This document shows positions 17,691 through 58,850 of a DNA stretch of 64,000 bases, piece after piece. Every line of letters begins with the position of its first letter. The stretch's first letter is position 1. The notes beneath the pieces are model-generated. The model did no database searches. It saw nothing but the letters and a program-made list of their open reading frames with translations, and was not told where the DNA came from. The DNA comes from a phage. The stretch lies in assembly GCA_033286805.1 (NCBI GenBank), contig GCA_033286805.1_4727.1. The stretch is one strand, 5' to 3'. The position numbers and the translations under genes were made by a program.

Positions 17691-17716
17691 CACGTAAGTA
17701 ATATAGCCGTGAAAGG
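17691..17716 (-). promoter_or_regulatory. early-promoter-like motif copy 1
   Basis: Minus-strand TTTCACGGCTATATTACTTACGTG ~48 nt upstream of ATG 17649; four near-identical copies in window. Confidence 0.45.
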
Positions 17717-29565: not shown

Positions 29566-31734
29566 TTAGCTTTCGCAGTCATCTGCGTCGATGATTTGTC
29601 CGCCAGCAACGTTCAGTTGATGATACAGAATCCTCAACGCACGGTTGCCGCCAATGGGATACTTCTCGAAGTTGGTCGCAATAGGAATCGCTGACGGTTT
29701 ATCGGTCGCATAGATGCTTTCAGTGATGCTATCCACCTGTTTTGGATTGTTCGCATAATCCATAAAGACGCTTGCGAACCATCCGCCAGCAAAGGCGGTA
29801 ACTTCGCGATGTTCAGATTCACCACAGTAACGAGTTGGTTGCTCTTTACCCGGAGAACTGTATTTATCGCTATTACTGAGTTTCGACGGTAATCCATGCG
29901 CTTGCAGTTTAGGGATGCCCACCGCTGACCAGTCGTTCGCCGTCTTCTCCAACATCATGATGTACGTGTCACCGATCGCAATATCGTTCTTGGTTGTCCG
30001 CCATTGCCCAGAACGTCCACGATACCGTACAGGACCTTTCTTCAACGGGAACTCACGAATCAGATTCTCCATACGTTCTGAACCTGCTGCGATACTGTCC
30101 GTCGGGATATAAACTTCCGTACCGTGGCGCTGTACGTACCGTAAATGATCCCATTTATCCTCATCCGTGATACAGTATTTTTCAACAACCTGTTCCACGA
30201 ACTCAGGACTGACGATATAGTAGTAGCGCATCAGTGTGTTCCAAGCGGTCTCCAGATCGCCTGCATCCATCACCGGTTTCAGTTCACGCATGATCTGATC
30301 ACCAACGCCGTTGATGTACGGTGCGTTAACACGACTTAAACTCATCCTTTTGATTACCGTACTATCGTCGAACATGAAGTCCGCAACGTTACCCCATTGG
30401 TCGACCGGCATTTCATCGTCTTCCATGATGTCGGTTACGACGAATTTATCACCCGCCATACCGGTGAATTTAAACCCGATACCTGGAACGACGTCGTACG
30501 TGTACGTGATGGTCACACGCCAATCATCGAGATTCTCTTTGCGGTAATCGCGAGTCGGTAGCACATGACGTAGCTGTCCGTTGGGATTGCGGATATCAAT
30601 ACCATGTTCAGCATCAGCCAGGTTCAACCACCACATCACCGTTTGATGATGACGTATCGGCGTACCAACGCGTTCACGTTCGTACTTACGAACAGCATCC
30701 TGAATCCGGGTGTAAAGCAAACCGATTGCGTTCTCGTATTTCAGGAATTGACGATACGGAGGACGCATCTTCTCTTCCATCATAATCGCACGCTCGCGGG
30801 CTTGACGTCCAGAACGACGATGTCGATCGCTGACAACATCGATATCCGTTACACGCGCATTCGGTTCCGCGTAAGTGAGGTCATCGTAAACATAATCCAC
30901 GCGCTGAAGATTACACGTCATCATGTCAACAACGCTAAGGATAGGATCGATTTCGCGTGTTGCTGCGAGTAACCCATCCTTACGAATACGCTCACCGTTC
31001 TCGGGTATTGCTTGATATACCTCGTCATCACCGTAGAGATTGATTGGGTATCGCGATTTACCTGACGTGATTGTTCGCTTCTCAATACCGGTACTGGTGA
31101 AATGCTTCAATACACCACGACGGGCAACGCCACCATCTTCAATACACTGATAGAAGCTACCGAAACACACCTTGCAATCGCGACCGTAGCCCCACTCGCG
31201 CGTTTCTTGATTGATCGCTGGGCTTTCCATCAAACGAGAATATCGCGGTACGATCTGGCCTCGACGGAGGGAATGGAACAAGTTGGTTGGTCGAAAACGG
31301 AAACCGTACTGCTGATGCATGATGTGATGCTCAGGCACTTCGAGCAAACGCAGTTCGTGACGGTTACCATCCTCTTGGTTTTCATACAGCACGTAATGCA
31401 TCGTGTTTGTTTTGATGCTGTTTGCTGTATGCCCCGGTTGGAAACGTGGGATGATATCTATGATGCGAGATTCAACTGGAAACTCTACTGACCACGTGTT
31501 CTGTCCGTACTGGTATTCGATCCCCGTCGTCAGTCGGGACGGTTTCGCATCTTTGATAACCAACGCTTGGCTAAGATGTCCACCAAACATCGCAGCGCGC
31601 TGTGCTGAGTTATAATGCAATAGCCCGTTAAGTCCTGTCCCTACGCCAGTATACTCCTGTTTAATGGGAATGATTTTACCTTCAGCGATTGCCTGCTTCA
31701 CAGATTCATAAAGAGGTTTTTCTTTATAATGCAT
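29566..31734 (-). CDS. multisubunit RNA polymerase beta subunit, C-terminal fragment
   Basis: NSAQRAAMFGGHLSQA (cf. ANRALMGANMQRQA), GDKFVVTD...EMPVD...SRVN (cf. GDKMAGRHGNKGV...EDMPYD...SRMN), RYCGESEHREVTAFAGGW (cf. QRFGEMEVWALEAYGA); ATG 31734 with AGGAAG SD, alternative 31899. Confidence 0.65.
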   Translation of the reverse strand: MHYKEKPLYESVKQAIAEGKIIPIKQEYTGVGTGLNGLLHYNSAQRAAMFGGHLSQALVIKDAKPSRLTTGIEYQYGQNTWSVEFPVESRIIDIIPRFQPGHTANSIKTNTMHYVLYENQEDGNRHELRLLEVPEHHIMHQQYGFRFRPTNLFHSLRRGQIVPRYSRLMESPAINQETREWGYGRDCKVCFGSFYQCIEDGGVARRGVLKHFTSTGIEKRTITSGKSRYPINLYGDDEVYQAIPENGERIRKDGLLAATREIDPILSVVDMMTCNLQRVDYVYDDLTYAEPNARVTDIDVVSDRHRRSGRQARERAIMMEEKMRPPYRQFLKYENAIGLLYTRIQDAVRKYERERVGTPIRHHQTVMWWLNLADAEHGIDIRNPNGQLRHVLPTRDYRKENLDDWRVTITYTYDVVPGIGFKFTGMAGDKFVVTDIMEDDEMPVDQWGNVADFMFDDSTVIKRMSLSRVNAPYINGVGDQIMRELKPVMDAGDLETAWNTLMRYYYIVSPEFVEQVVEKYCITDEDKWDHLRYVQRHGTEVYIPTDSIAAGSERMENLIREFPLKKGPVRYRGRSGQWRTTKNDIAIGDTYIMMLEKTANDWSAVGIPKLQAHGLPSKLSNSDKYSSPGKEQPTRYCGESEHREVTAFAGGWFASVFMDYANNPKQVDSITESIYATDKPSAIPIATNFEKYPIGGNRALRILYHQLNVAGGQIIDADDCES

Positions 31735-36695: not shown

Positions 36696-36750
36696 AACAA
36701 CCTCTTTTCGCGGTTCCCTGTTAAAACGTCTTCTGTGACGTCTACCACAA

Positions 36751-36772
36751 AGGTAATATAAGCGTGAATAAT
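36751..36772 (-). promoter_or_regulatory. early-promoter-like motif copy 2
   Basis: Minus-strand ...CACGCTTATATTACCTTT ~56 nt upstream of ATG 36695. Confidence 0.4.
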
Positions 36773-42024: not shown

Positions 42025-42050
42025 CACTTAAGTAATATAGCCGTGAAAAA
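42025..42050 (-). promoter_or_regulatory. early-promoter-like motif copy 3
   Basis: Minus-strand TTTTTCACGGCTATATTACTTAAGTG upstream of 41474-41938. Confidence 0.45.
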
Positions 42051-42855: not shown

Positions 42856-42897
42856 GATTGTCCTCGTTTTCAATTTTAAGATTGCATGCGGCATAAA

Positions 42898-42922
42898 CCC
42901 TCCCCGCCTTATGCAGGGAGGG
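42898..42922 (-). terminator. GC-rich hairpin followed by TTTATGCCGC motif
   Basis: CCCTCCC / GGGAGGG stem after stop of 42938-43576. Confidence 0.5.
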
Positions 42923-42937
42923 TAGCCATTAAATGGA

Positions 42938-43576: not shown

Positions 43577-43591
43577 TACAGGCGTCCTCCT

Positions 43592-43816
43592 TTAGCAATG
43601 GTTGTTAGTTGCTTCTATTTCGTCAAGATAAGGTTCTACGTCATCGCCCTCCACGAATTCGTTGAACCAACAGTCAATGGTAGAAATAACCGGTGACTGG
43701 TGTTCACATTTCTTAGATACCTTAAAAGGTACGTTATTATCCATCATACCGAGTTCGGGTCGGAATCTCCCGAAATGTTTCGCAGTCCAAATGTCTGGGA
43801 CGATATGGTTGTTCAT
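43592..43816 (-). CDS. RNA polymerase beta-prime N-terminal fragment, proposed exon 3
   Basis: Translation MNNHIVPD...GMMDNNVPF matches the bacterial beta-prime segment directly after NADFDGD (QMAVHVPL...ALMMSTNNILSP). Confidence 0.5.
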   Translation of the reverse strand: MNNHIVPDIWTAKHFGRFRPELGMMDNNVPFKVSKKCEHQSPVISTIDCWFNEFVEGDDVEPYLDEIEATNNHC

Positions 43817-44173
43817 CAATATCTTCAATACGAATCGCTACTTCGTATCCGCAGCATTACCTGCAGCTCCTGGTGTTACCAGGATGTTGAGAGTATATCA
43901 TGTCCATATTCCAAATGGAACGTAGGACTTCCGCGCTGGATCTCGCTTGAGACCGCTTACTCGTTGAACGTTCTCCTAAACGGAGCTTCGCTGCTGATTG
44001 GACATTGTTACGTACGGTAGGCGTCCCATTAAAGGGATTTTCATTGAAGCCGCGTACATCCGTTACCTTGTTTCTACCTTATCGGTTCCTCTTACGAGGC
44101 GTAACGGCTTTAGCCTATTCCAGCAATTCACGGAATGCATATTCTCCTTTTCAGGAGATAAGGCCATGGCTCT
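43817..44173 (-). ncRNA. intervening sequence 2 (putative self-splicing intron, group I-like; boundaries approximate)
   Basis: Paralog of IVS1: shared 3' end ...CCTGGTAACACCAGGAGCTGCAGGTAATGCTGCGG...GAAGATA..G and hairpins with compensatory changes; ends in G. Confidence 0.4.
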
Positions 44174-44191
44174 GGCATCACCGTCAAAGTC
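44174..44191 (-). CDS. RNA polymerase beta-prime proposed micro-exon 2 encoding DFDGD(A)
   Basis: Minus-strand GAC TTT GAC GGT GAT GCC; in-frame TGA three codons upstream so it cannot be reached by read-through from exon 1. Confidence 0.45.
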
Positions 44192-44541
44192 CACGTATCT
44201 TCAGTATGGTTCGCTACTCCATACCCGCAGCATTACCTGCAGCTCCTGGTGTTACCAGGACGGAGAGATCATCTCATCACCCACGAAGGGTGTTCCGCGC
44301 TACCCTCAGCGAATTCGAGGGACATGATCGTTGAACCTTCCACCGATAATCGGCGGCTAGGCTGCTGATTGAACATTGTACGTTGGGGTGGCATCCTGGT
44401 GCAGGACTGTCGTTGAAGCCTCCCAACATCCACTCACTTATTTCCGCCTTATCGGCTCCCACAAGGGCAGAGTGGCTTTAGCCCGTCTCAGCAATTCACG
44501 GAATTCAAGCTCTTCCTTTCGGAAGGCAGGGCCTCATTTGA
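44192..44541 (-). ncRNA. intervening sequence 1 (putative self-splicing intron, group I-like)
   Basis: 350 nt between ...GYNA codon (ends in U) and DFDGD codons; ends in G; multiple hairpins conserved by covariation with IVS2. Confidence 0.45.
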
Positions 44542-45792
44542 AGCGTTGTATCCCTTAAGGATCATCACGCTTAACCCGATGGTGTTATCCTGCGGATCGC
44601 GTTTAACCTTGGTGATTTCAAGACATTGGTTACTGCTTCGGTCAAGTGATGGGTTTCGAACAAAGCCGCACACAATCCCATCGAACGGTGTATCAGCAAT
44701 AAGCTCATCGTGCAGCTCGCTCATCATCGGATGATAATTACGGACATGTTCCGCAACGAACGCACGTGCCGCTCTTGGCGAATAACCACGATGGAATAAC
44801 TTGGATTGGATATGTTCTTTATTGGTTAAAGTAAATGGTGCGTATGGGAAATGCAGATGATAATAACGATGGTTCGCTGTTATCGAACTGATTACAGTAC
44901 GCGTGGTGAATGGATGTAATGTACCTAATATGTTTTTACGTGTGATACCTTTCTTCTTACCGATGAACTCATCGAAAATTGCTGCGTGGTATTGCAGTAG
45001 CTTCAGTTGTACTTTCGCCATCCAGTTTTCTTTCTTTCTGGCGCTCAAAGGTGTTGTTGGGTGATAGATACTATTCAACGTACCGATAGCATCGATCGCA
45101 CCTTCCATTTTGCTATCTGCATAACGACCGGTCGGCGTATTTTCGATAACGAACATCATGGCCGCAGGAAAGCTGATATACTGACTGAAGAACTTATCAC
45201 GATGGATACGGATGAATTCTCGTAGCGTGTCAACTTTCTCCGTGTTCTTCGGTCCACGTAACGTGGGTCCTTTATACAAGATCTCCATGATACGATCGAA
45301 GTTCTGTATAAAGCTATTTACGCCACGTCGTATCCCGAATGCATCAAATTGCTGCTCTAGATAGTTCTTGAGTTCAATGGGTCGTTTTACATTTGGACGG
45401 TAACTGGCATCAATGAGCCACGTCATCGTTTCAAAGCTTTTGATATTCAACTCGCTTGCCAGCACGAGATGGACCAACGGGTTAATGAACGCATCGATTC
45501 CTTCAGGGACACGCGCCCAGACCGTCGAACGAATCTCTTGTTCTGCTGGGTAGGTTACAACCGTTTTACAGTTTGGACACACCGTGCCGAGTAGCTCACC
45601 ACGATTGTAGAAACCACAACCACATTGTGGTGTGATATCCAACGTATCGCTGGAGTAAACACGGGTGATAAAACTGTTTAATTTCTTCTTCTCTTCGACG
45701 ACTTTTGTATCGTAATCATTCAACAAAATCGGCGTAAAAGGAAGTTCTGCGAGCTGTCTATCGAAACTCACGATATCGAGCATGATGGCCAT
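44542..45792 (-). CDS. RNA polymerase beta-prime N-terminal fragment, exon 1
   Basis: Zinc-binding CGCGFYNRGELLGTVCPNCKTVV (cf. [23 protein letters not shown]), GKKKGITRKNILG...TRTVISS (cf. [23 protein letters not shown]), ends ...VMILKGYNA; AGGAG SD. Confidence 0.65.
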
Positions 45793-45834
45793 GGGGTATC
45801 TCCTACAAATGAAAAAGAACGTTAGGACGTATAA

Positions 45835-45858
45835 GGGAGGGAGGTTGCCCTCCCTCCC
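45835..45858 (-). terminator. hairpin after 45885-47780
   Basis: GGGAGGGAGG-TTGC-CCTCCCTCCC 10-bp stem. Confidence 0.5.
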
Positions 45859-45884
45859 GTCAGATTACATCGAACGTTCTTCCA

Positions 45885-47780
45885 TTAGAACAGGTTGAAT
45901 GCCCCACCCATGTTGTTAACGCCAACATTCGGACGATCGCTACGTGCGTAGATGTTACCGGAGATGTTACCCAGACCACGAGCACGTGCTGCCATGTTAC
46001 CACGAACGGCGGTACCTGCCAGATGCTGGATGTTCTCAGGACGGATGGTGAAGCCAGCATCAGCCGCAGCTTCGATCAGCGCCTGCAGTGCTAACGGATC
46101 GAAGTCGTAACGCATTGCCCAGCCGGTTTGTTCCCAGCTACCAGACAGAACACGATCGATGATTTCGTGACGAGCGACAACACGCTGAGACATCGTCATA
46201 TCGGTACGGTCGAAGCTGTCTTCCCAAGCTTCTACGGTATCCGGGTTAGTGATGTTCATCATGTACAGATCGTCCATATCACGAATATCGTGACGGTGAC
46301 CATCCTGGTGGTTGTAGTAACCCAGCGGGATACGGTTACCGGTAGCGTAGACCAGCGGTTGGCCGTATTGATATTTCTTGCTGAAGCAACCCAGGGTAGT
46401 ATCATCGAAGGCACGGTAGAGTGCTTTGTAACCTTCGGAGATTTCCCGGACTTCACCTTCAACTTTGCCCGTAAAGATCTTCTCAGCCGCCGGGATCATA
46501 CGCAGCAGCCAGCTATACTCGCCTTCTTCTGGTACGTCGATAGAAATCAGCAGAGACGGATACAGAACCTGTTGCAGGAACTTGTAAATCTGCTCGTTGG
46601 TTTGCGTAGACAGATCCAGCGGTGCAGTCACTTCAGGATCCAGCACCATCGCCAGAGCACCTGGGTTATGCGGACCAATACCACGAGCCGCGTTGCTGAT
46701 TAAAGACTGTGCCCATGCCATGCCGCTGTTCAGCGTAGCGATGGTACCAATCAGACCCAGCACGAAGCTGTTCGGTGTGAACGCATCCAGCTCCAGCGGG
46801 TAAACGCTGGTCATCACGTAACGCGGCTGGTATTGTACAGTCGGCGGTACCGGATAGCCGTTAACCAGAACAGGGCCTTGGTTGAAGGTCGGGTTCTGCG
46901 GGCTGTAGGTCAGGTCAATGTAACCGGTGGTGGCGACCAGACGCTGTTGACTATCGTAATCGCTCATCGCTTGACGGATGCGGTTAGAGATAGTTACAGT
47001 GATGTCAGAACGCACAGGGTTACCAACAATATCGCTGTCCTGCATACCGCTGGTGTTGTACTGAACGCTGCTGATTGGCTGATCGCTTGCCATCATGCCC
47101 AGGTTGAACTGCGGCAGACCCAGTTTATCACCGAGACGGATTTCGATCGCGGTTTGGATTGCGTTATCTGCAGCAGACAGCAGGGTGGTTGCCAGATGCG
47201 CAGATTCAGCGGTGATTTCATTGGTCACCACAGCCAGACCAGCGATACGAACAGTACCGTTAGACTTACCGCCAATAGCTGAATACATTGCCGCCATGAC
47301 TTCGTTGATGAACGTACCGTTCAGGTTATCAACCCAGGTACGCGGTACCAGAATGTTACCATGCGGACCTTGTTCTTCACGACGCGGCAGCGGAGCCAGA
47401 CCAGCAACCAGCGGCAGGACGTAACCGAAGAAGTGGTTATGATCACCAACTTTTGCACCGCTCATAACAACCAGGGTCGGATACGGTACGCTGTACTGGT
47501 TCGGGTCAACCGCAACAAAGATGAAGTCGTCTTTGAACTGGGTATCTTCCAGATATTTCTCCATCAGACGACGGAGATTCAGTACCTGCTCGGAGCCGGT
47601 ATTACGGCTGATACGACGGCTCAGTGTACGGTTGATCGTACGCATCGTATGAGTTACTTTAGGACGGTCGGCAAAATCTGCAGCGGTTTCCAGCGCCTCA
47701 TCAGCACGTTGTGCGGTGCGGGTTTCAGCTGCACGAATTTCTACATTATCGTTACCGTTATTACGTACGTCTAAGCCCAT
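45885..47780 (-). CDS. candidate chimallin (phage nucleus shell protein ChmA) or other major early protein
   Basis: 631 aa; early-promoter-like motif upstream; about 11 genes from PhuZ, matching my recollection of Goslar layout; no sequence-level confirmation possible here. Confidence 0.4.
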   Translation of the reverse strand: MGLDVRNNGNDNVEIRAAETRTAQRADEALETAADFADRPKVTHTMRTINRTLSRRISRNTGSEQVLNLRRLMEKYLEDTQFKDDFIFVAVDPNQYSVPYPTLVVMSGAKVGDHNHFFGYVLPLVAGLAPLPRREEQGPHGNILVPRTWVDNLNGTFINEVMAAMYSAIGGKSNGTVRIAGLAVVTNEITAESAHLATTLLSAADNAIQTAIEIRLGDKLGLPQFNLGMMASDQPISSVQYNTSGMQDSDIVGNPVRSDITVTISNRIRQAMSDYDSQQRLVATTGYIDLTYSPQNPTFNQGPVLVNGYPVPPTVQYQPRYVMTSVYPLELDAFTPNSFVLGLIGTIATLNSGMAWAQSLISNAARGIGPHNPGALAMVLDPEVTAPLDLSTQTNEQIYKFLQQVLYPSLLISIDVPEEGEYSWLLRMIPAAEKIFTGKVEGEVREISEGYKALYRAFDDTTLGCFSKKYQYGQPLVYATGNRIPLGYYNHQDGHRHDIRDMDDLYMMNITNPDTVEAWEDSFDRTDMTMSQRVVARHEIIDRVLSGSWEQTGWAMRYDFDPLALQALIEAAADAGFTIRPENIQHLAGTAVRGNMAARARGLGNISGNIYARSDRPNVGVNNMGGAFNLF

Positions 47781-47845
47781 TTGGGATTCCTCTTTTCTTA
47801 AACTTTATTAAATGACGTCATTGAATCAGCTTCTACTCGCTCATT

Positions 47846-47870
47846 CACCTAGGTAATATAACCCTGAAAT
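47846..47870 (-). promoter_or_regulatory. early-promoter-like motif copy 4
   Basis: Minus-strand ATTTCAGGGTTATATTACCTAGGTG ~73 nt upstream of ATG 47780. Confidence 0.45.
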
Positions 47871-48034
47871 TTTTTTCAATATTGGTGTAACCACATTGAA
47901 CGATATAAACCCCCAGGCGAACGCTGCCGAGAAGCAACATTCTTTCTACATATAATCAGGATATGTCTGTAAACTTTTACTTCTCTTATTGAGAGTAAAG
48001 TCATATCCGTTTACCATCTTCTTACGGAGTTCGT

Positions 48035-49129
48035 ATGTTTCGTGTTTTAAATAACCTCCCGCGAACATCATCGGGTGTGCAACCCGTCCCTCAGAAAGAC
48101 TATCTAATACGTGAAGTTCAAAGAAACCTACAGACAATCCAGAACCACTATCAAGGTTTTACCTTCGCGGTTCAGAGCGATCACATCCTTGCATTGCTGC
48201 TCGCACAGCTCCCTATGAGATACGACATCTCAGTACAAACTTACTACGACATGATTCTCGATCTTACGCCAGAATTGGGTAATCGTGTCAAGTTGACAAC
48301 ATCAAGATACGCGGGTAAGTTATTCGACGGTGCTTTCTATCCGGGATTGCACGAAGCTATTATCGCAACCGGTGAAAGTCGTCTTATTTCACGTGATGTT
48401 CTTGACAACTGGCGTAATTGGTCACCAGTTAGAATCGTGACGCACCCATACGCAAATCTTCGTTACATTCCTCTTCACCAAAAGCAGGTTGAAGAAGGAC
48501 GAGGTTTTGCGGTCATTATGGTTGACGTACCTTTATTAGCGCTACAGTATCGAATGTGGTCTTTGGTCATGGGTCATAACGTCGACGGTAAATGGGTGGT
48601 TAAAGAACCGGTTACAAGCTTCCTTGCGAGTTTTCCGTTGGTTAACGTATTATACTCACACAACGATGTTGTTATACGTAATCGTTGTTTGTGGGTATCT
48701 CCGGCTAAGAATCCACTCAAATCACCAATTTACGTTAACGACCTTGATAACGTATTCAGCCAAGTCGTTCTGTCCGTACAGCATCATTTATTACGAAGAA
48801 GACGAAGCTACACCGACATGCTTAAACAGATACCGAGTTTATACGGGGATCAGTACCAAGCAACCCGGATGGGCTATACCGTCGATCTTCGACAAACACG
48901 ATGGGCAAGGGATCTGGGTTGTCTGTCATTATGGCAACAACTCGTCACACTACAAAACGTATCTGAAAGCGTCGGGTTCAGCAGTCAAATCGATAACGAC
49001 CTGTATCGTGCCGCCGACCGAAGTCTAAAAGAAGGTAACTGGGAATCCTCTCCGTTACCTGGCGATTTAAGACGTGAAGTTATCGCACAGGTTGCCGACC
49101 TCTTAAAAATTCTTCCTGCTGGTACATAA
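48035..49129 (+). CDS. hypothetical protein
   Basis: 364-aa plus-strand ORF with GGAG SD; CCGTTTACCATCT motif upstream. Confidence 0.55.
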   Translation: MFRVLNNLPRTSSGVQPVPQKDYLIREVQRNLQTIQNHYQGFTFAVQSDHILALLLAQLPMRYDISVQTYYDMILDLTPELGNRVKLTTSRYAGKLFDGAFYPGLHEAIIATGESRLISRDVLDNWRNWSPVRIVTHPYANLRYIPLHQKQVEEGRGFAVIMVDVPLLALQYRMWSLVMGHNVDGKWVVKEPVTSFLASFPLVNVLYSHNDVVIRNRCLWVSPAKNPLKSPIYVNDLDNVFSQVVLSVQHHLLRRRRSYTDMLKQIPSLYGDQYQATRMGYTVDLRQTRWARDLGCLSLWQQLVTLQNVSESVGFSSQIDNDLYRAADRSLKEGNWESSPLPGDLRREVIAQVADLLKILPAGT

Positions 49130-49149
49130 TCACCTCCCTCTTCCCTTGC

Positions 49150-49180
49150 ATCCTCCCAACCCGTAAGGGAAGGGAGGATG
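49150..49180. terminator. hairpin between convergent genes
   Basis: CATCCTCCC / GGGAGGATG stem within longer imperfect palindrome. Confidence 0.45.
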
Positions 49181-49195
49181 GGGTGGTGGATTATG

Positions 49196-51349
49196 TTACT
49201 CTGCGGTTTCTCGCTTCGGTAAATAACTTGCTGCGATGTCTTGGGCCAACAATGTATTGTTTTTATTCGAGATGAAAATACCGTAACTTTCCATTAACGC
49301 GTAATACGAACGCACGAGCGTAGAGATCAATCGACGAATATCCATACCTTGAATAAAGATATCGGGAAGCCCGGAGGCTTCGATCACCGGTAATGGTATC
49401 GTTAAGTTGCTTATCGTTTTCTTATCGTTACGTACAATCCAATCACGGAAACGTTGTTGTAACCCTTTATCCTCCCAGGAATCAATCCAATCGTTAAGAA
49501 GCGTTTTGTTCTTCGTCGCCAACGGCACACGAACCCCAACATAGGGTGGTTCCTGGCAATGGCCGTACGATTGAGCAAACACCTCTTCCCACATATCGTA
49601 AGACTGTTTCGTTACTGCAACATGCGGTTTCACTTTAACACGTGTTAAGAAATCAGGATCACCACGTTTCATGGACTCAACGATTTCGTTTTCTAACGAG
49701 ATAATATCATCAAGAACCAATCGAATGCTGATCTTCTCATTACGTAACAGCTTATCCATGATACCACACATCATGCGTTCAACACGTTTGACGATCATTT
49801 TTGGTGCTGACGCATCGCGCATAACCGGACCTTTCAATTCCAGCTTCGGTGGATTGATAGGAACCCCCTCACGCATGGTCATGTAACCGTAATAGTTTTT
49901 ACCCATCGAGGTTAACGACAGAATCAAGAACATATATTCGTTCTTCATTTCCATTACGTACATATGCTCTTTCGCCACACCGATATTACCAGAACACATC
50001 GCCATCAGATGGACTGTAATCTGCGTAACCAGATAGATAAGCGTGTTTGCTAAGCGCGTCGAAACTGGATTGATCTCCATATTTCCAAATCGCCACTGAA
50101 CCCACTCCTGGCAGGTAAACACCGTCGAGTCGGTATCAGACAACACGCCCACTTCACGGATTGCTGATGGGAAAGCATAAACACCAGCCGGTTGGTTCTC
50201 GGTACGCCAGAACGCCATAATCAAATCAGCATAGCTTTGAATACGCTGTAGCATTAATTTTGTCGTTGCTGCAGTAAGACGATAACCAAGCTCATTTCCT
50301 TTTTCTAGCGCTACGTAAATCGCTTCCCCATTCAAGAACTCCGTACATTGTGCTGTAATCCAAGCGACCGTGTTGTTATCCATGGAAGCAATAATGGCTT
50401 TAGCCTCTTCCATCGTTTCAACAGGTTCGGATGCCAGCTCGCATAACGAATCAAGAAAATCTCGAACAAATTCAGGATTAAGCTCACGTAACGAGTACAG
50501 GTTATTGCTGTACATGTAGCAGGCGCGTTCCAGTGGGGTTAAACCGGTAATTAACTCCCGGATAGTCAGTTCTTTCTCTGGGTCGAAAGTATACCGATGC
50601 AAGCATTTCGATACGTTAGCCCAAACCTCTTCCGGCGTAGGGTAATGTAGTTTGTATTTTACCATTACCTGTTCAATGGCTTTACGATCGCTGTTGCGGA
50701 CAATACTCACGATGTTTTCAATTGCGATATCACAATCGTAATAATGGAAATTGCCCGCAAGGAAGCGTTCGTTGTTCGCATTGGCTGAACCTGAAGCACA
50801 GCGACATGTTGTCGTTAAACTTGGATGTGCGATCGGATTATAAAAAGGGTTAAACTTGGACGCCTGGGTTCCTGACAAACTGTTGTTATCTAACTTGGTG
50901 TTGGTTTGTCGTTTATCGTGTAACTCAGCTTCATCTTTACGTCCGTGTGCTTGTGCTATCGACATTTGTTTCTTTTGTTTCTTACGCAACTTACCGTTTT
51001 CAACCGCGAAATCGCTTAGCACACTGGAACGTGTTTCACGTGGATAACAGTTAGCCCATACCGGCGTGATAATTAAATTATTTTCTTTAATATCATTGAA
51101 GTATTGGCTGAACTTAATGACTTCTTTTTCTCGATTTCCTTCGGTACGCTGTGTTAATACAAGACAGTCGGGATCAACCATCCCGTATTTTCCACCGGGA
51201 CGAACCGTATCAAGGACAAACTGTAACGCTTCCTGCTGTGATATCCCACGCATGCGCATTAAGAACAGGGTATAATCCTGTACCGCTTCTTTGGTCATAT
51301 CCAACGTACGACCATATCCGTTTTCATCGTAAAAGAACGGATTTTCCAT
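49196..51349 (-). CDS. large hypothetical protein (717 aa)
   Basis: Long ORF; YAFPSAI and LSDTDS segments noted but no confident family assignment. Confidence 0.55.
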   Translation of the reverse strand: MENPFFYDENGYGRTLDMTKEAVQDYTLFLMRMRGISQQEALQFVLDTVRPGGKYGMVDPDCLVLTQRTEGNREKEVIKFSQYFNDIKENNLIITPVWANCYPRETRSSVLSDFAVENGKLRKKQKKQMSIAQAHGRKDEAELHDKRQTNTKLDNNSLSGTQASKFNPFYNPIAHPSLTTTCRCASGSANANNERFLAGNFHYYDCDIAIENIVSIVRNSDRKAIEQVMVKYKLHYPTPEEVWANVSKCLHRYTFDPEKELTIRELITGLTPLERACYMYSNNLYSLRELNPEFVRDFLDSLCELASEPVETMEEAKAIIASMDNNTVAWITAQCTEFLNGEAIYVALEKGNELGYRLTAATTKLMLQRIQSYADLIMAFWRTENQPAGVYAFPSAIREVGVLSDTDSTVFTCQEWVQWRFGNMEINPVSTRLANTLIYLVTQITVHLMAMCSGNIGVAKEHMYVMEMKNEYMFLILSLTSMGKNYYGYMTMREGVPINPPKLELKGPVMRDASAPKMIVKRVERMMCGIMDKLLRNEKISIRLVLDDIISLENEIVESMKRGDPDFLTRVKVKPHVAVTKQSYDMWEEVFAQSYGHCQEPPYVGVRVPLATKNKTLLNDWIDSWEDKGLQQRFRDWIVRNDKKTISNLTIPLPVIEASGLPDIFIQGMDIRRLISTLVRSYYALMESYGIFISNKNNTLLAQDIAASYLPKRETAE

Positions 51350-51424
51350 AAATCCTCCAAAAGTTATTTAGTCTGTCTACATCATCTCGTATATCTGTTA
51401 AAAAAGAAGGACGGCATAAAAAAG

Positions 51425-51452
51425 AACCGATCCAGCCGAAGCCAGATCGGTT
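51425..51452 (-). terminator. hairpin followed by TTTTTTATGCCGTCC motif
   Basis: AACCGATC / GATCGGTT stem. Confidence 0.45.
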
Positions 51453-51648
51453 AAAAAAGGATAATAACTGACAGAAAGATATCGATGATGTTCGTGAAAC
51501 AAGATCTTCTCTCGTGTACAATGATGCTAGATCAGAGGGAGGTTGTAACACGAGAGGTGGTCCGCCAAAGAAGGAATAAAAACACGAACCTATCTTATTT
51601 CACTGATGGCACTAACCACTCAAAATATATAGTACCGTATGTAAAAGT

Positions 51649-52062
51649 TTACTGATTAATCAAGTCGTTAGCAACAATCTTGGTGTAACCTGCTTGATTA
51701 AGAATTTGATTAATTTTCGTCACGTCGGTCGCATCCTCAATAACGATGCTGGGTTTATAGATCAGCGTCTTGGTAACGACGATTGTACTCTCCTTAATCC
51801 AAGGAATCCCTAGAATCACATACTCACCATCGGCTGTAATGACCTCGACGTAATTGTATTTCGTCGGATCGTTCGGTACACTAGACGGGAGCCGGGAATA
51901 AATCTGTTGGTGAATGGCATCTACATCACGACCGTTACGTACAGCTGTGCGATAATTGTACACAGCGCTAATTTCTACTCCGTTGAAGTTAACCCCAAGT
52001 TCTGGGGCGTACACATCAAAACTCACAACAGAGCCAATCTTTTCTAAATCAGAAGCTGGCAT
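51649..52062 (-). CDS. hypothetical protein
   Basis: 137-aa ORF. Confidence 0.45.
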   Translation of the reverse strand: MPASDLEKIGSVVSFDVYAPELGVNFNGVEISAVYNYRTAVRNGRDVDAIHQQIYSRLPSSVPNDPTKYNYVEVITADGEYVILGIPWIKESTIVVTKTLIYKPSIVIEDATDVTKINQILNQAGYTKIVANDLINQ

Positions 52063-52077
52063 AATAGCATCCTTTAT

Positions 52078-52596
52078 TTAAAAAATGTATTCATATCCGA
52101 AAGTCGTCGCTGACCAGACCCGGATAGATGATAGTGTTCCGCCACGATAAAACGTTTTTGTGAATTCCATATCCTGGACAACACGATAATAAACACGTCC
52201 GATAATACGTACGATAAGGTTTCGTGATAACGATCTCTCCTCGCAGTATTCATCGATAAAGTCATCGTCGATATCCGATAAGACAACATCCGCAATTTCT
52301 TGCAGTAGATTCCTCATCAGCATCTGCCTTCCTTCGGTACCCCACCCAGACAAACAGTAATCGTCTTCTGCCTGACTATAGATGTCGTTAACCGCCTGTT
52401 CGAGCAGTTGCTCAAGATAGTAGTCATCGCGTTTTATAACGTGGCGACGGCGCTCAGTGGCGTATTTTTCCATCCTGTGTTTCTCTTGTTCGGCGTATGT
52501 ATTAACGACGCCACAGTCTTTTCTGGATCGTCCCACAATGCACGACGAAAACTGGATACTACCATAACGGTAGGATAGATTTGTACAACCTCCCAT
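52078..52596 (-). CDS. hypothetical protein (start uncertain)
   Basis: 172-aa ORF overlapping next ORF by 162 nt as drawn. Confidence 0.35.
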   Translation of the reverse strand: MGGCTNLSYRYGSIQFSSCIVGRSRKDCGVVNTYAEQEKHRMEKYATERRRHVIKRDDYYLEQLLEQAVNDIYSQAEDDYCLSGWGTEGRQMLMRNLLQEIADVVLSDIDDDFIDEYCEERSLSRNLIVRIIGRVYYRVVQDMEFTKTFYRGGTLSSIRVWSATTFGYEYIF

Positions 52597-52922
52597 CCGT
52601 AACGATGTGCGTTAGTCGTACGTCCGACATTGAACAGACATAGCTGATTTAAGAAACAGAGCTGCATCTTCGTAAATAACACCATGTCTTCACGTTTAAC
52701 GTATCCGAGGATATACGCATTCTCGAACGCCTCGCGCGACAAGACGGGACGATTAAGATACCGCAACGACAGTACCAACAACGTTGTTATACGCAACGGA
52801 TCTTCTGGGTCATTCATGGTGCTCAGCTCTGCTTGTAACCAGTCAGGGATAGTAACCGTCAGACGATAGGTATCTGTTCCACGATCAACCACATTCAATG
52901 TTGAAAAAGGCAACATATCCAT
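52434..52922 (-). CDS. hypothetical protein
   Basis: 162-aa ORF. Confidence 0.4.
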   Translation of the reverse strand: MDMLPFSTLNVVDRGTDTYRLTVTIPDWLQAELSTMNDPEDPLRITTLLVLSLRYLNRPVLSREAFENAYILGYVKREDMVLFTKMQLCFLNQLCLFNVGRTTNAHRYGWEVVQIYPTVMVVSSFRRALWDDPEKTVASLIHTPNKRNTGWKNTPLSAVATL

Positions 52923-53379
52923 GAATTCCTTCTAGCTCGAGGTTATTCTCGCCCGTCTTCGGTAATAACCCACTGGCCGTTAACATCTGCGTCATCGAGT
53001 AGTCAAAGCACGGAAATATCAGGTTAACGGTTTCCTGGATCGCGTCAACATAACTATAAATGGCTTCATAATACTCACCGTCATGATCTACACTAACCAG
53101 TTCCTGACACAGTTCTTCGCTTATCATTTCATATACCGGTGGATACCATGATTGAAATGGTCGCTGCATACGTAACGACCAATACTCGTACGTCGTATAC
53201 TGAAGCACGTCGTAAGCCGATACGTTAATGCGGTCGAAGAAAGCATACTTGTCCATATGCTGATACAACATCGCCAGCACGGTTTCCAAGCACACCGATA
53301 TCCGCACGCCGTCATCTTTCCCGTTAAGAAAATTAGGTTTCTGCCGATAACGCACAAATGCCGACGGCTTTGATTGCAT
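52885..53379 (-). CDS. hypothetical protein (start trimmed to ATG 53379, TAATG overlap)
   Basis: Track ORF 52885-53460; internal ATG gives 1-nt overlap with upstream stop. Confidence 0.4.
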   Translation of the reverse strand: MQSKPSAFVRYRQKPNFLNGKDDGVRISVCLETVLAMLYQHMDKYAFFDRINVSAYDVLQYTTYEYWSLRMQRPFQSWYPPVYEMISEELCQELVSVDHDGEYYEAIYSYVDAIQETVNLIFPCFDYSMTQMLTASGLLPKTGENNLELEGIHGYVAFFNIECG

Positions 53380-53930
53380 TATTCCACCACCAACCATAAC
53401 GTCATACTCGTATCTAACGTAAAATTGAAATGCCACCAATCTTCTACACGTGGAATCCACGTACGAAGGATTTGGTTAACTTCGCTTCGCATCACCGATA
53501 AACGACAACGAAAATCGAACTTCTCATCATGACCGTAGTCTTCATGCATGAAAACTTCATCCAAAACGAACTCAAGTTGCATGTCGACATCACGACCAGA
53601 GATATTCCGTTTGTACAAATACAACTCAATCGTGTCGTAAAGCAACGTATGAATATCATAATTTCCGTTCGGTGAGAAATAAGGTAATCGCTCATCGAAC
53701 ATCGAAAACAGATATTCGCTGTAGTTTAATAACGGGATGATGTACCGACGCCCTGTCTGTGGTGTGCGAATATGTATCGAAACCTGACTTGGGCGCGGAA
53801 TAACCGACGGCTTAGAATCGTCTCTCTGAAATTGCTCTAAAGATCGCAACAAAGGTGGCCGCATTGTAACTCTCCAACGCCCAATTGTAAGGCCCTTCCA
53901 ACATGTGTTCCCATACGTGAATAAACTCAC
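53379..53930 (-). CDS. hypothetical protein (start uncertain)
   Basis: 183-aa ORF. Confidence 0.4.
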   Translation of the reverse strand: MSLFTYGNTCWKGLTIGRWRVTMRPPLLRSLEQFQRDDSKPSVIPRPSQVSIHIRTPQTGRRYIIPLLNYSEYLFSMFDERLPYFSPNGNYDIHTLLYDTIELYLYKRNISGRDVDMQLEFVLDEVFMHEDYGHDEKFDFRCRLSVMRSEVNQILRTWIPRVEDWWHFNFTLDTSMTLWLVVE

Positions 53931-54441
53931 TACCGAAGACAGGCTCTAGCGCCATAGTGAGATTCGTAAGTTCTGACGCGGCCGCATGGTAAGCATCAAC
54001 ATGTCTTTCCATTGACGGATCGTCTTCATTGAAAATACGTTCTGTATCGCCAGCGCGCTCAATAAGTTCGGTAATGAGATCTGTCCATGTCTCGTGACAC
54101 GTCATCATTTCCTGTTCTCGACTTAGTATGCCGATGTCTGCGTGGACGCTGGACTCGAACCGGTCTAAAAGGACCCGAAGAACGTGCACCTTGTCGATGT
54201 ATTTCACCGTTATCCAAGAAAGCGGTTGCCACCGACTCAGCATCCATCCGGTACTCGGGAACCCCAAACTCATATAGTACGGGTTGCACCGGACCGAAGA
54301 CGGAGCGACGTTGTTTAAATCGCTCCTTAAGGGCAAGGCCTTGTTTAATATAAACGGGTTCATTGGCGAGTTGTTCCGCTTTTCGTTTTGCGTGAGCCAA
54401 TCGAAGTTCTTCCAATTGCCCAAGCCATTCAAATTGTTCAT
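53812..54441 (-). CDS. hypothetical protein (start uncertain; likely internal Met)
   Basis: 209-aa ORF overlapping 54059-55036 by 383 nt as drawn. Confidence 0.3.
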   Translation of the reverse strand: MNNLNGLGNWKNFDWLTQNEKRNNSPMNPFILNKALPLRSDLNNVAPSSVRCNPYYMSLGFPSTGWMLSRWQPLSWITVKYIDKVHVLRVLLDRFESSVHADIGILSREQEMMTCHETWTDLITELIERAGDTERIFNEDDPSMERHVDAYHAAASELTNLTMALEPVFGSEFIHVWEHMLEGPYNWALESYNAATFVAIFRAISERRF

Positions 54442-55036
54442 CTGTTAGCTCCTGGGGACGTTCAACAATCGCGCCAGACGGGCAGATATTGATCGTAATG
54501 TTAATTGACGGCATCGCCATCACTCGAGGATTACTATTACGTACGCGGACAACGTGTTCGGTTGCTGATTTACGATCGACGCAATACTCTGTTTCTTGGA
54601 ACTCAAATGCTTTTAACGGCGCTGGTTTTGTTTGACGTTTAGGAACGCGACCAAGATCAACAATATAGGCATAATCGCACACACGTTCTATTCCGTAAAT
54701 ACGGTTATCCGACCAGTTCTTACCAAACAGCTTGTTGTGATGATAAGACAAATATTCGGTTACCATACCCTGGACAACATCGAAGTCTTCTCGAAATTCG
54801 GGTTGGTACCAAATCGGGCCGAGAATATCTGCGAACGATTCATGACGATATCGAGGATCATGTCGAGTCCAGGTCATTCTCTGGTTAAGATCGAAATCCA
54901 CCAACAACTCGGTTAATTGCAATTTTTCCTTCGGAGAAAGCTGGCGTTGATGATGCAAACTCAGGCAATCGATAAGCGGTAATGAAACCCACGATGCTAA
55001 TGTGTACAAATCGATCCTGGCTAATCTCTTGGTCAT
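54059..55036 (-). CDS. hypothetical protein
   Basis: 325-aa ORF. Confidence 0.5.
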   Translation of the reverse strand: MTKRLARIDLYTLASWVSLPLIDCLSLHHQRQLSPKEKLQLTELLVDFDLNQRMTWTRHDPRYRHESFADILGPIWYQPEFREDFDVVQGMVTEYLSYHHNKLFGKNWSDNRIYGIERVCDYAYIVDLGRVPKRQTKPAPLKAFEFQETEYCVDRKSATEHVVRVRNSNPRVMAMPSINITINICPSGAIVERPQELTDEQFEWLGQLEELRLAHAKRKAEQLANEPVYIKQGLALKERFKQRRSVFGPVQPVLYEFGVPEYRMDAESVATAFLDNGEIHRQGARSSGPFRPVRVQRPRRHRHTKSRTGNDDVSRDMDRSHYRTY

Positions 55037-55127
55037 ACTCTTTTCCTAAGTCCCCATTGTTTATACACACGATATCTGGGAATAGTTAAAATATACGGCG
55101 TAAAACGAAGCAGGAGAGTTTCTGACG

Positions 55128-55448
55128 TCATTTTCTCCCTCTTCGAATACCACCGATACCTCTTTCGTCTAAGACGTCCCAAGCACGCTTTATTTCATCC
55201 TCCGTTGCTCTGGTATCTGGAGGGACAACCATAACACAGTCGTGGAATGGCCAATGTGTAGGTCTGGGGTTAGCGAACAAATCATCCCATTCAAATGTCC
55301 ATTCTTTCTTTGAGCGATTGTAGTAGAGCGTAAGGTACGTGTTGGTATACGCCGGATAACCGCGCATAACTTCAATATCCTTACGATCTTGCCGTTCCTG
55401 ATTCCAATCGTTAAACCGCTTTCTTATTTTCTCCCACCACTTTCCCAT
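55128..55448 (-). CDS. hypothetical protein
   Basis: 106-aa ORF; AGGAG SD; TTTATGCCGTC motif 20 nt upstream. Confidence 0.5.
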   Translation of the reverse strand: MGKWWEKIRKRFNDWNQERQDRKDIEVMRGYPAYTNTYLTLYYNRSKKEWTFEWDDLFANPRPTHWPFHDCVMVVPPDTRATEDEIKRAWDVLDERGIGGIRRGRK

Positions 55449-55470
55449 GCTTTCTCCTAGACGGCATAAA

Positions 55471-55492
55471 AGCCTGCCCCGAAGGACAGGCT
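55471..55492 (-). terminator. hairpin followed by TTTATGCCGTC motif
   Basis: AGCCTGCCC-CGAA-GGACAGGCT stem after stop of 55502-55702. Confidence 0.5.
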
Positions 55493-55501
55493 CGATAGAA
55501 C

Positions 55502-55702
55502 TTAACGACCATCCAATTTCAATGAAGGATGGTTGACGATATGTGCGTGTTTTGCTGGGTCATATAGCTGATATGGAAAATAGCCATGCCATTGACGGCC
55601 TTGGCATTTCGTACACAGGAACTGACCAACACCTTGTCGATTCTCGTAAGCGAGTTCGGTACTATCAACATGTCCGCAACGTTCGCAGATAAACAGCGAC
55701 AT
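55502..55702 (-). CDS. small zinc-ribbon protein
   Basis: CERCGH...CTKCQG, 66 aa. Confidence 0.45.
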   Translation of the reverse strand: MSLFICERCGHVDSTELAYENRQGVGQFLCTKCQGRQWHGYFPYQLYDPAKHAHIVNHPSLKLDGR

Positions 55703-55739
55703 AGCGCATCCCCATTCACTTGAACCTTTTGGTTCGGCA

Positions 55740-56720
55740 TTAGAAAAGCAAGAAACCGCTATTCTTCGCTTCCGCTACAGTTTCGTCACCAACTTTCGGT
55801 GCTTGTTGACGTGCGTTACGATGTTCGATGTAACGTTTCGCTTCGTCCGCGATCTGTTTGATAATACCCCCTAAACGATCGGTACTTAAAACAAACGACG
55901 TCGCTTCACGAATCGGGCTGCTTTCAGGCACAAAACCATCACAGCTATAAATAGCGCTAACACCCATGACTTTTGTCGCGTCTTTCGGATAAAGCGTACA
56001 GAAAGCAATCGGGCTATCGTTCTCTTTCGTCCAATCGTATCCCATGAACGTATTCAGTTCGGTGATCGTTGGTTCCAAACCGGTAACACGTGGATGGTTT
56101 AAGAAGTTTTCCAGGTCGGCGCTGTCAAGACGACGGTTCTCGCCAGAAAACAGAACACAAAGCTGGCTAATAACAACCTGGACGTCCAGGTTGACATCCT
56201 GCTCCGATTTCCCATTTTCGCCATTCATGTGATAGCTAACAATCACCGGACGTTTCAATCCTTCTGCGGCTGCCATCAGTCCTTTGAAGGTGCGATCGGC
56301 GTTGATCGTCTGGCGCTCATCATCGAACGAGGCAACGATACAACACACCACACGTTCACCGCGTTCCAGCAGGTTAGCAACCAACGCAGGACCGGCAACA
56401 GAACCTGAACCACCGCTCAAACTAAAGACCACGATATTAAATTTACCCGGCGTATGCTTATTGAGAATACCTGGGATTTGTGAACAGATCAGTTCAGCGT
56501 TCTCATCACGCTTCTTACCAGAACCGTCTAACTCACGACCAGCTGCATCTTTAAAGATGTAAATATGATCGTCGCCCAGTGTGCTATCGCGTAGGTTAGC
56601 GCGGCTGGTATCAACATACGTCATGCTGTGTAATCCTTTCGCGACTTCGCCTTCAAATGCTGAGCCGATTTCGCCACCACAACCACCGACAGCCCAAATA
56701 TGTACTTGGTTCTCTTGCAT
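55740..56720 (-). CDS. phuZ: phage tubulin PhuZ (tubulin/FtsZ-like GTPase)
   Basis: N-terminal IWAVGGCGGEIG and T4-loop-like FSLSGGSGSVAGPALV closely parallel recalled PhuZ (IFAGGTGMNV...YSLGGGSGSVLGPLI); 326 aa; AGGAG SD. Confidence 0.75.
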   Translation of the reverse strand: MQENQVHIWAVGGCGGEIGSAFEGEVAKGLHSMTYVDTSRANLRDSTLGDDHIYIFKDAAGRELDGSGKKRDENAELICSQIPGILNKHTPGKFNIVVFSLSGGSGSVAGPALVANLLERGERVVCCIVASFDDERQTINADRTFKGLMAAAEGLKRPVIVSYHMNGENGKSEQDVNLDVQVVISQLCVLFSGENRRLDSADLENFLNHPRVTGLEPTITELNTFMGYDWTKENDSPIAFCTLYPKDATKVMGVSAIYSCDGFVPESSPIREATSFVLSTDRLGGIIKQIADEAKRYIEHRNARQQAPKVGDETVAEAKNSGFLLF

Positions 56721-56784
56721 GTGAACTCCTAACTTAATATGTATTTAACGCACAATGAATCTTTCTTTGCTAAAGGGGTGACCC

Positions 56785-58450: not shown

Positions 58451-58462
58451 GGAAGATCCTCC

Positions 58463-58837: not shown

Positions 58838-58850
58838 GATAACCTATTCG

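Follow-up and report, generated by a model that had tools for sequence, protein, structure and literature searches.

The stretch of phage DNA analyzed here (the window, 64,000 nt) encodes, all on the minus strand, a 631-amino-acid (aa) chimallin, a 326-aa PhuZ tubulin, a divergent family B DNA polymerase, and three pieces of a non-virion RNA polymerase (nvRNAP), namely, beta-prime N, beta-prime C, and beta N, together with four copies of a 23-nt promoter-like motif and two putative group I introns (Table 1). The start of the beta N gene was set from the annotated length in Escherichia phage vB_EcoM_Goslar, as the mechanical open reading frame (ORF) reaches position 31899. The phiKZ-gp55-type polymerase gene lies directly downstream of chimallin, the same order as in phiKZ (gp54-gp55) and Erwinia phage Simmy50. 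For the hairpin that separates the DNA polymerase gene from the gp192 homologue, Goslar has an annotated terminator at the orthologous position. A tRNA scan of the window found none.

Table 1. Coordinates of features in the 64-kb window
Feature	Position	Strand	Remarks
Motif copy, upstream of HD-domain gene	17691..17713	-	Second copy; 23-nt consensus match
nvRNAP beta-prime C subunit	25488..27494	-	phiKZ gp74 homologue; PDB 7ogp_D, E=1.3e-86
nvRNAP beta N subunit	29566..31734	-	phiKZ gp71-73 homologue; PDB 7ogp_C, E=1e-85; PHROG 3295, E=2e-180
Motif copy	36746..36768	-	Third copy; 23-nt consensus match
Motif copy	42025..42047	-	Fourth copy; 23-nt consensus match
nvRNAP beta-prime N, exon 3 (predicted)	43592..43816	-	74 codons, MNNHIVPD...; annotated in Goslar as separate hypothetical protein gp185
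Group I intron B (predicted)	43817..44173	-	357 nt, no ORF; orthologous copies in Goslar and an IMG/VR relative
Mini-exon (predicted)	44174..44191	-	18 nt, GACTTTGACGGTGATGCC, encodes DFDGDA; spliced product aligns through to PDB 7ogp_A and PHROG 2987
Group I intron A (predicted)	44192..44541	-	350 nt, no ORF; between Ala and Asp codons of NADFDGD
nvRNAP beta-prime N subunit, exon 1	44542..45792	-	417 codons, ending ...ILKGYNA; phiKZ gp55 homologue; PHROG 2987; PDB 7ogp_A, E=8.6e-75
Chimallin (ChmA), major nuclear-shell protein	45885..47780	-	631 aa; orthologue of Goslar gp189
Motif copy TTCAGGGTTATATTACCTAGGTG	47846..47868	-	Ends 65 nt upstream of chimallin ATG; identical in Goslar
Divergent family B DNA polymerase (Goslar gp191)	49196..51349	-	Pfam PF20286, E=2.4e-204; one aa differs from Goslar
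Strong intrinsic-terminator-like hairpin	51425..51452	-	12-bp stem and T run; between gp192 homologue and DNA polymerase gene
PhuZ tubulin	55740..56720	-	326 aa; orthologue of Goslar gp201

The analysis of the window drew on identity at the sequence level, membership in protein families, gene order, and statistics on motifs, and cell-biological functions were carried over from published work on Goslar. It was collinear with Goslar at 96.0 to 98.2% nucleotide identity (DNA comparison over at least positions 1 to 60001, the span for which identity was computed). The initial annotation had proposed this genome comparison and, from a candidate chimallin, a PhuZ-like protein, and split multisubunit RNA polymerase genes, had placed the window in a chimallivirus-type genome; the collinearity, the nvRNAP pieces (homologues of PDB 7ogp chains A, C, and D), and the chimallin all bear that placement out. 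With chimallin, split multisubunit RNA polymerase genes, a divergent family B DNA polymerase, and collinearity with Goslarvirus goslar found together, the window almost certainly derives from an E. coli jumbo phage of the Goslar type (genus Goslarvirus, chimallivirus) that encodes chimallin and PhuZ. Both ORFs exist exactly as first delimited, the Goslar gene numbers given for them (gp189 and gp201) agree with GenBank record MK327938, and the spacing of about 11 genes matches the 11 annotated Goslar genes between Goslar_00189 and Goslar_00201.

Chimallin and the motif upstream of it

The 631-aa protein matched Pfam PF25677 "Chimallin_Phikzvirus" (96.6 bits; cut-off, 27; residues 19 to 596 on profile positions 10 to 592 of 627) and PHROG 4795 "nuclear shell protein" (E=3.1e-54) and aligned over all 631 residues to Goslar chimallin (PDB 7sqt; E=0), which confirms the candidate put forward initially. 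It was 98.3% identical to Goslar gp189 (PDB 7SQT), with 11 substitutions (G38D, Q39R, R81Q, A167S, A177V, A326V, T338S, Y436F, V461T, L474Q, and H488Y), and the variable positions among four Goslar-like genomes formed a mosaic. A capsid or other virion structural protein, with whose size 631 aa would be compatible in jumbo phages (nothing else was found in favor of this reading), is so improbable as to be close to negligible: the Pfam and PHROG family matches are solely to chimallin or nuclear shell, the near-identical Goslar protein is a solved chimallin lattice protein, and the Pfam, PHROG, and PDB comparisons yielded no match to a capsid family; such a match was what the initial annotation had named as counting against chimallin.

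Since chimallin carries more amino acid changes than the other proteins of the region, positive selection was considered; it was ruled out by a dN/dS of 0.08 against Goslar gp189. The protein was unchanged from Goslar across residues 40 to 80 and beyond residue 488. The tail segments delimited for the 201phi2-1 protein are NTS (48 to 61), CTS1 (590 to 611), and CTS2 (622 to 631) (PMC9365700), and the invariant C-terminal stretch spans CTS1/CTS2 (590 to 631, 201phi2-1 numbering). The full-length alignment to 7sqt covers the fold with its NTS, CTS1, and CTS2, and these segments, as delimited for 201phi2-1, are free of differences. The structure of the Goslar shell and in-cell data have been published (PMC9365700), and assembly of a DNA-enclosing shell during Goslar infection has been seen by cryo-electron tomography (PMC9365700, PMC9891218). 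From this work we infer a shell-forming role for the chimallin in the window, whose tail segments at both termini would mediate self-assembly into a square lattice enclosing the replicating phage DNA (the "phage nucleus").

The initial annotation had also noted four early-promoter-like motifs, one of them ahead of the 631-aa gene. The motif holds up as a 23-nt element: the extended consensus TTCAsGsyTATATTACyTnnGTG occurred four times in the 64-kb window, always on the minus strand, against 0.01 copies expected by chance, and all four copies were conserved at the orthologous Goslar positions. The bare 8-mer TATATTAC, which we take to be the core of phiKZ early promoters too, was not above chance in the window (4 found versus 2.5 expected), and a literature search for it returned nothing relevant. 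In the four motif copies, this core lies at 47853, 42032, 36753, and 17698. Sigma-70-like promoters were not enriched in the window either (18 found versus 25.8 expected).

According to a review (PMC7598289), every RNA polymerase-encoding jumbo phage has a conserved AT-rich early-promoter motif of about 10 nt centred near -10, and the AT-rich core of the motif upstream of chimallin fits that description. In chimalliviruses, shell formation is described as beginning when infection begins (PMC9891218), so that early expression of chimallin is expected. The motif is most likely an early promoter for the injected virion RNA polymerase. It could instead be a different kind of conserved element, for example, a promoter of the middle or late class, a site for a regulator to bind, or a signal for RNA processing; the flanks conserved outside the AT-rich core (TTCAsG ... 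GTG) could bind a factor, and there are just four copies per 64 kb. This reading is unlikely, given the early-promoter motif common to such jumbo phages, the early chimallin expression expected from the timing of the shell, and the placement of all four copies, which are intergenic and co-oriented with a start codon 45 to 90 nt downstream.

The PhuZ tubulin

The 326-aa protein matched PHROG 4733 "tubulin PhuZ" end to end (E=2.9e-68, residues 1 to 323), and its PDB matches were all PhuZ proteins of chimalliviruses (9pm9, E=4e-220; phiKZ 3zbp, E=7.8e-29; 201phi2-1 3r4v, E=6.4e-15). It was 99.7% identical to Goslar gp201 (PDB 9PM9), from which it differs by a single conservative substitution (E229D). 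A literature search found no paper describing 9pm9. The GTP-binding motifs were kept, with GGCGG at residue 12, which is the GGxGG-type motif reported initially, and SGGSGS at residue 102. The catalytic aspartate D202, on which GTP hydrolysis and filament dynamics depend in Goslar, was also present; in Goslar PhuZ, the D202A mutant loses vortex formation and nuclear rotation (PMC9891218).

The Pfam Tubulin domain scored 29.9 bits, below the curated cut-off of 33, so that the tubulin call, subthreshold by Pfam alone, depends on the profile specific for PhuZ and on solved structures. Because the generic match is subthreshold, the superfamily alone does not discriminate PhuZ from a DNA-partition tubulin of the TubZ type (known from clostridial phage c-st and Bacillus plasmids), and this weak match is what speaks for TubZ in place of a nucleus-positioning PhuZ. 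TubZ is nonetheless highly improbable, as the top profile is PhuZ over its whole length, the structural matches all come from chimalliviruses, and imaging of the Goslar orthologue, one residue different, has shown it as a vortex surrounding the nucleus of the phage (PMC9891218). The initial annotation had held that a lack of PhuZ similarity in profile searches would speak against its call; the PHROG profile and PDB comparisons both returned PhuZ. The structure built by Goslar-type PhuZ is a vortex and not a bipolar spindle (PMC9891218), and by analogy with the published Goslar work, the PhuZ of the window phage would form GTP-dependent filaments that surround the nucleus as a vortex and rotate it.

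Predicted introns and an intein at active-site codons

The beta-prime gene adjoining chimallin was split within the codons of its catalytic NADFDGD motif, where two tandem ORF-less putative group I introns flank an 18-nt mini-exon. In a low-threshold local search of 2.5 kb against Rfam RF00028, intron A scored 26.4 bits (E=4.7e-4) and intron B 28.0 bits (E=1.6e-4), both under the gathering score of 50, and a whole-window Rfam search at the gathering threshold found nothing; the intron annotated in Goslar, at 46.9 bits, is also below that score. Introns A and B were about 80% identical to each other, and among three copies compared, 30 of 94 predicted pairs showed compensatory changes. In intron A, the predicted P1 pairs U with G at the splice site, and the final base of the intron is G. 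All six proposed introns end in G and five follow U, the exception being intron B of the window, where the preceding base is C and pairs with G in P1. Moving the 5' splice site of intron B to the position after GAT, where it would follow a U, was considered but rejected, as this deletes the Ala and shortens a spacing conserved in phiKZ and Simmy50.

Splicing in silico extended the beta-prime N match to PHROG 2987 from positions 1 to 417 (387.3 bits) to positions 1 to 474 of 478 (446.7 bits), and the spliced product aligned across both junctions to PDB 7ogp_A. The predicted junctions read AACGCT|GACTTT and GATGCC|ATGAAC. Exon 3 aligned to the C terminus of the intron-less Simmy50 gp228 (E=7e-12) and to that of phiKZ gp55/56.1. 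Used alone, the 78-aa downstream ORF matched only Goslar by tblastn and was recognized as the C-terminal exon of the polymerase only via the spliced product. With structure covariation present, scores below the RF00028 gathering threshold, and an intact conserved frame restored by their removal in silico, introns A and B are predicted group I introns.

The site was occupied by introns A and B in the window, by A' (with HNH, gp186) and B in Goslar, and by C, A', and B in an IMG/VR relative, and these three distinct architectures splice in silico to an identical peptide. We therefore lean, by a modest margin, toward regarding the 31 nt that code for GYNADFDGDAM in nvRNAP beta-prime as a hotspot with up to three tandem self-splicing group I introns, mini-exons of 13 to 18 nt, and four insertion sites, the presence of introns varying among near-identical Goslar-like phages. 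If true, this would mean ongoing intron-versus-intron competition in E. coli chimalliviruses, in which an ORF-less intron at a neighboring site would disrupt the sequence targeted by the HNH endonuclease of a rival intron, and would bring a tractable E. coli system under the PhiPA3/PhiKZ "intron as weapon" model.

A helicase gene in the window contained a putative intein that is absent from Goslar. Relative to Goslar gp164, an in-frame insertion of 352 aa (positions 24001 to 25056), ending ...VTHN|T, separates the K from the T in the Walker A motif (GSGK|T). The insertion matched Pfam LAGLIDADG_3 (E=1.9e-6), its N-terminal splicing domain matched the DnaB and gp41-1 inteins in the PDB, and it shared 40 to 44% identity with insertions that other jumbo phages carry in this helicase. 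An in-frame position at a conserved motif, Hint-domain ends, and a LAGLIDADG homing endonuclease domain mark it as a predicted intein.

Significance and comparison with known systems

The identification of chimallin and PhuZ is correct but already known: the nucleus-forming-phage call is right yet not new, since both genes are already characterized Goslar proteins, among the best characterized of this model chimallivirus. Its main value lies in correct annotation, in placement in the genus Goslarvirus, and in linking both genes to structures already solved and to the cell biology already published. The natural chimallin variants (11 here, mosaic over four genomes) are changes that a lattice protein accepts, and they could be of use in planning mutagenesis. 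The additional observations on introns and the intein matter more than the chimallin/PhuZ call. In public Goslar annotations, one polymerase subunit is divided into "gp188" and "gp185," and a 13-nt exon that would code for some of the catalytic site is overlooked. Among close relatives within the nucleus-forming phages of E. coli, the differences lie mainly in predicted mobile introns and a predicted intein at enzyme active sites, the raw material for inter-phage competition of the kind already demonstrated in Pseudomonas chimalliviruses.

Goslar ChmA (gp189, Goslar_00189/HOV27_gp246; PDB 7SQT, 7SQU, and 7SQV) has the same length, genomic position, and upstream motif as the chimallin of the window and differs by its substitutions only. 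The chimallins of 201phi2-1 (gp105), phiKZ (gp54), and PhiPA3 (PhuN) belong to the same family (PDB 7sqq, 8igg, and 8fne; E values, 2e-11 to 2e-22) but have merely distant sequence similarity to the window protein. Likewise, Goslar PhuZ (gp201; PDB 9PM9 and 9PMK), also 326 aa, is identical in G-box, tubulin signature loop, D202, and C-terminal tail, whereas 201phi2-1 gp59 and phiKZ gp39 are placed in the PhuZ family by 3r4v and 3zbp with distant sequence similarity only; Goslar and 201phi2-1 PhuZ share about 27% identity (PMC9891218).

The phiKZ nvRNAP subunit gp55/gp56.1 (PDB 7OGP chain A) is the same subunit as beta-prime N and is interrupted at the same NADFDGD motif by the HNH gene gp56; the solved phiKZ chain is a fusion across that interruption and aligns through both junctions predicted in the window. 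phiKZ has one interruption with an HNH gene, whereas the window has two ORF-less predicted introns and an 18-nt mini-exon. The PhiPA3 gp210 intron carries an HNH homing endonuclease in the virion RNA polymerase beta gene (PMC11620839) and is similar in being a mobile group I intron that interrupts the codons for the catalytic site of an RNA polymerase in a chimallivirus and that varies between coinfecting relatives. It lies in another polymerase and another subunit; the predicted introns of the window are without an endonuclease, and their tandem arrangement is undescribed in that study (PMC11620839).

Chimallin, PhuZ and genome context

The 631-amino-acid (aa) protein, put forward in the initial annotation as a candidate chimallin (the nuclear-shell protein; Goslar gp189), is chimallin: it scored 96.6 bits over residues 19 to 596 against Pfam PF25677 "Chimallin_Phikzvirus" (curated cutoff, 27), matched PHROG 4795 "nuclear shell protein" (E = 3.1e-54), and in a PDB search aligned over its full length with Goslar chimallin (7SQT/7SQU/7SQV) and more distantly with PhiPA3 PhuN (8FNE) and with 7SQQ and 8IGG (both deposited as chimallin). 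The tubulin-like 326-aa protein is PhuZ (Goslar gp201), with a full-length match to PHROG 4733 "tubulin PhuZ" (E = 2.9e-68), a single substitution (E229D) relative to PDB 9PM9/9PMK (E = 4e-220), and PDB matches to PhuZ of phiKZ (3ZBP; 8e-29) and 201phi2-1 (3R4V/3RB8/3J5V; 6e-15). It carries the G-box (GGCGG at residue 12), the SGGSGS signature loop (residue 102) and D202; the Goslar D202A mutant is impaired both in forming the vortex and in rotating the nucleus (PMC9891218). Against the generic Pfam Tubulin model, the protein scored 29.9 bits, below the cutoff of 33.

Both open reading frames (ORFs) lay exactly where first annotated, and the spacing expected from Goslar was recovered, with the orthologues Goslar_00189 and Goslar_00201 separated by 11 coding sequences in the original Goslar record (the RefSeq copy tags chimallin gp246 and PhuZ gp234). 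The split multisubunit RNA polymerase genes were also found, as three non-virion polymerase pieces. The initial observation is thus confirmed and its interpretation supported in every respect; chimallin, PhuZ and their arrangement are already known for Goslar.

Coordinates of features in the window and of the intron locus in related genomes
Feature	Coordinates	Strand	Detail
SF2 helicase (Goslar gp164 homologue)	22861-25491	minus	
Intein, 352 aa	24001-25056	minus	In-frame, between K and T of Walker A motif
phiKZ gp74 homologue	25488-27494		7OGP_D, 1.3e-86
phiKZ gp71-73 homologue	29566-31899		7OGP_C, 1e-85
phiKZ gp55 homologue (beta-prime N, split)	43592-45792	minus	Start 45792
Predicted intron B	43817-44173	minus	
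Predicted mini-exon	44174-44191	minus	
Predicted intron A	44192-44541	minus	
Chimallin, 631-aa ORF	45885-47780	minus	Mechanical ORF list
PhuZ, 326-aa ORF	55740-56720	minus	Mechanical ORF list
Intron locus, L001 (Goslar)	739-2543		
Intron locus, L010 (IMG/VR relative)	9232-10353		
Intron locus, L009 (Goslar-like)	9200-9990		

Escherichia phage vB_EcoM_Goslar was the sole match to a 12-kb query spanning the finding (100% of length, 98.2% identity), and comparison of the window with Goslar showed collinearity over positions 1-23994 (96.0% identity), 25057-44136 (96.9%) and 44543-60001 (98.1%), with two structural differences, namely, the polymerase-gene introns and a helicase intein. IMG/VR contains Goslar and two more Goslar-like genomes, and an identical chimallin is encoded on a contig built from reads of the public run SRR24668568. 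The DNA polymerase gene is separated from PhuZ by nine small ORFs (51649-55702, minus strand), which correspond to Goslar gp192-gp200, all "hypothetical" there, and were 98.5 to 100% conserved where checked.

Chimallin differed from Goslar gp189 at 11 residues (G38D, Q39R, R81Q, A167S, A177V, A326V, T338S, Y436F, V461T, L474Q and H488Y) and was the same beyond residue 488, a stretch that includes the CTS1/CTS2 tail segments, which mediate lattice contacts (boundaries defined on 201phi2-1; PMC9365700). Although its dN/dS against Goslar (0.08) was the neighbourhood maximum, the gene is clearly under purifying selection. Identity among four Goslar-like genomes was 97 to 98%, with mosaic variable positions: the protein agreed with L009 at residues 38-39, 81 and 167 and with Goslar from residue 502 on, wherever L009 differs, which suggests that recombination may have occurred within the gene. 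Blocks at about residues 92-166, 178-325 and 339-435 were invariant among the window, L008, L009 and L010. Chimallin (...GGAFNLF; 45885-45905) and PhuZ (...NSGFLLF; 55740-55760), both flexible-tail proteins, share a hydrophobic F-x-LF-like end, probably by coincidence.

Promoter-like motif and helicase insertion

The four early-promoter-like motifs noted initially are real. The bare motif TATATTAC was not significant, with 4 copies against 2.5 expected; the 23-nucleotide (nt) consensus common to all four sites (TTCAsGsyTATATTACyTnnGTG) occurred 4 times against 0.01 expected, on the minus strand only, with every copy intergenic, 5' of a co-oriented gene and kept at the orthologous Goslar position (4/4). 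According to a review, jumbo phages encoding RNA polymerases all have a conserved AT-rich motif of ~10 nt near -10, marking virion-polymerase early promoters (PMC7598289). Given this description and the motif's statistics, position and conservation, we infer on good grounds that it acts as an early promoter. Sigma-70-type matches were not enriched at 43500-58000 (18, against 25.8 expected in shuffled sequence), consistent with transcription by the phage's own polymerases.

The helicase insertion, absent from Goslar gp164, carries a LAGLIDADG endonuclease domain and intein splicing-domain homology, shows 40 to 44% identity with insertions that other jumbo phages have in this helicase, and is an intein of a kind already known. 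It begins with Ala and ends in ...THN|T; its W (GEHLW) and C (ARCITID) positions suggest class 3.

Predicted tandem introns in the polymerase beta-prime N gene

The part of the window deserving follow-up is the intron pile-up adjoining chimallin. The phiKZ gp55-type polymerase gene directly follows the chimallin gene, as in Erwinia phage Simmy50 and in the gp54-gp55 adjacency of phiKZ. Its ORF followed Goslar's through codon 417 (...ILKGYNA) and diverged exactly thereafter. Downstream lay two direct repeats (~80% identical, ~370 nt apart), each matching the Rfam group I intron model at full length with scores (26.4 and 28.0 bits) below the gathering score of 50. The 18 nt between them (GAC TTT GAC GGT GAT GCC) encode DFDGDA, and the ORF after the second repeat starts MNNHIVPD; in Goslar, the counterpart of this ORF is annotated on its own as hypothetical protein gp185.

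When exon 1, the mini-exon and this ORF were joined in silico, the result was a 497-aa protein reading ...GYNADFDGDAMNNHIVPD..., which regains NADFDGD, the universal beta-prime Mg-binding motif. The alignment with PHROG 2987 (478 positions) grew from 1-417 before predicted splicing to 1-474 after it (387 to 447 bits), and the product aligned with the intron-less Simmy50 protein and, across both junctions, with 7OGP_A, a phiKZ chain of solved structure whose deposited name is that of a "PHIKZ055 ... PHIKZ056.1" fusion. A consensus fold of introns A and B and Goslar's B copy held 94 pairs, 30 with compensatory changes. By these comparisons, the gene appears split within its NADFDGD codons by two ORF-less group I introns in tandem, 350 and 357 nt long. 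All proposed introns in the window, Goslar and L010 end in G, and all except window intron B are preceded by U. At the 5' splice site of window intron B (44174-44176/44173), the C of GCC would form a C-G pair in predicted P1; L009 has the same C, and in Goslar and L010 the pair is the canonical U-G.

Proposed intron architectures in related phages

Three architectures, with four insertion sites in 31 nt, occur at this spot among Goslar-like phages, and in-silico splicing of all three gave an identical peptide. L009 shares the window's architecture (1 nucleotide difference in 771). Goslar's first intron, in contrast, is 1,440 nt long and includes the HNH gene gp186, entirely missing from the window. 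Its insertion point is 5 nt further downstream, and after it come a 13-nt mini-exon and then intron B. In L010 there are three introns in tandem (365, 376 and 355 nt), separated by two mini-exons of 13 nt. Public Goslar annotations (L001 505-744, 2522-3793) give gp185 (exon 3) and gp188/gp247 (exon 1) as separate genes. In them, exon 1 runs on into the intron as far as a false stop, and neither the 13-nt mini-exon nor the second intron is recorded. A limited literature check found no published description of tandem introns with mini-exons. Phage-phage competition has been shown to involve an HNH intron of a different chimallivirus polymerase gene (PMC11620839), and in phiKZ an interruption of the gp55-type gene is implicit in PDB entry 7OGP.
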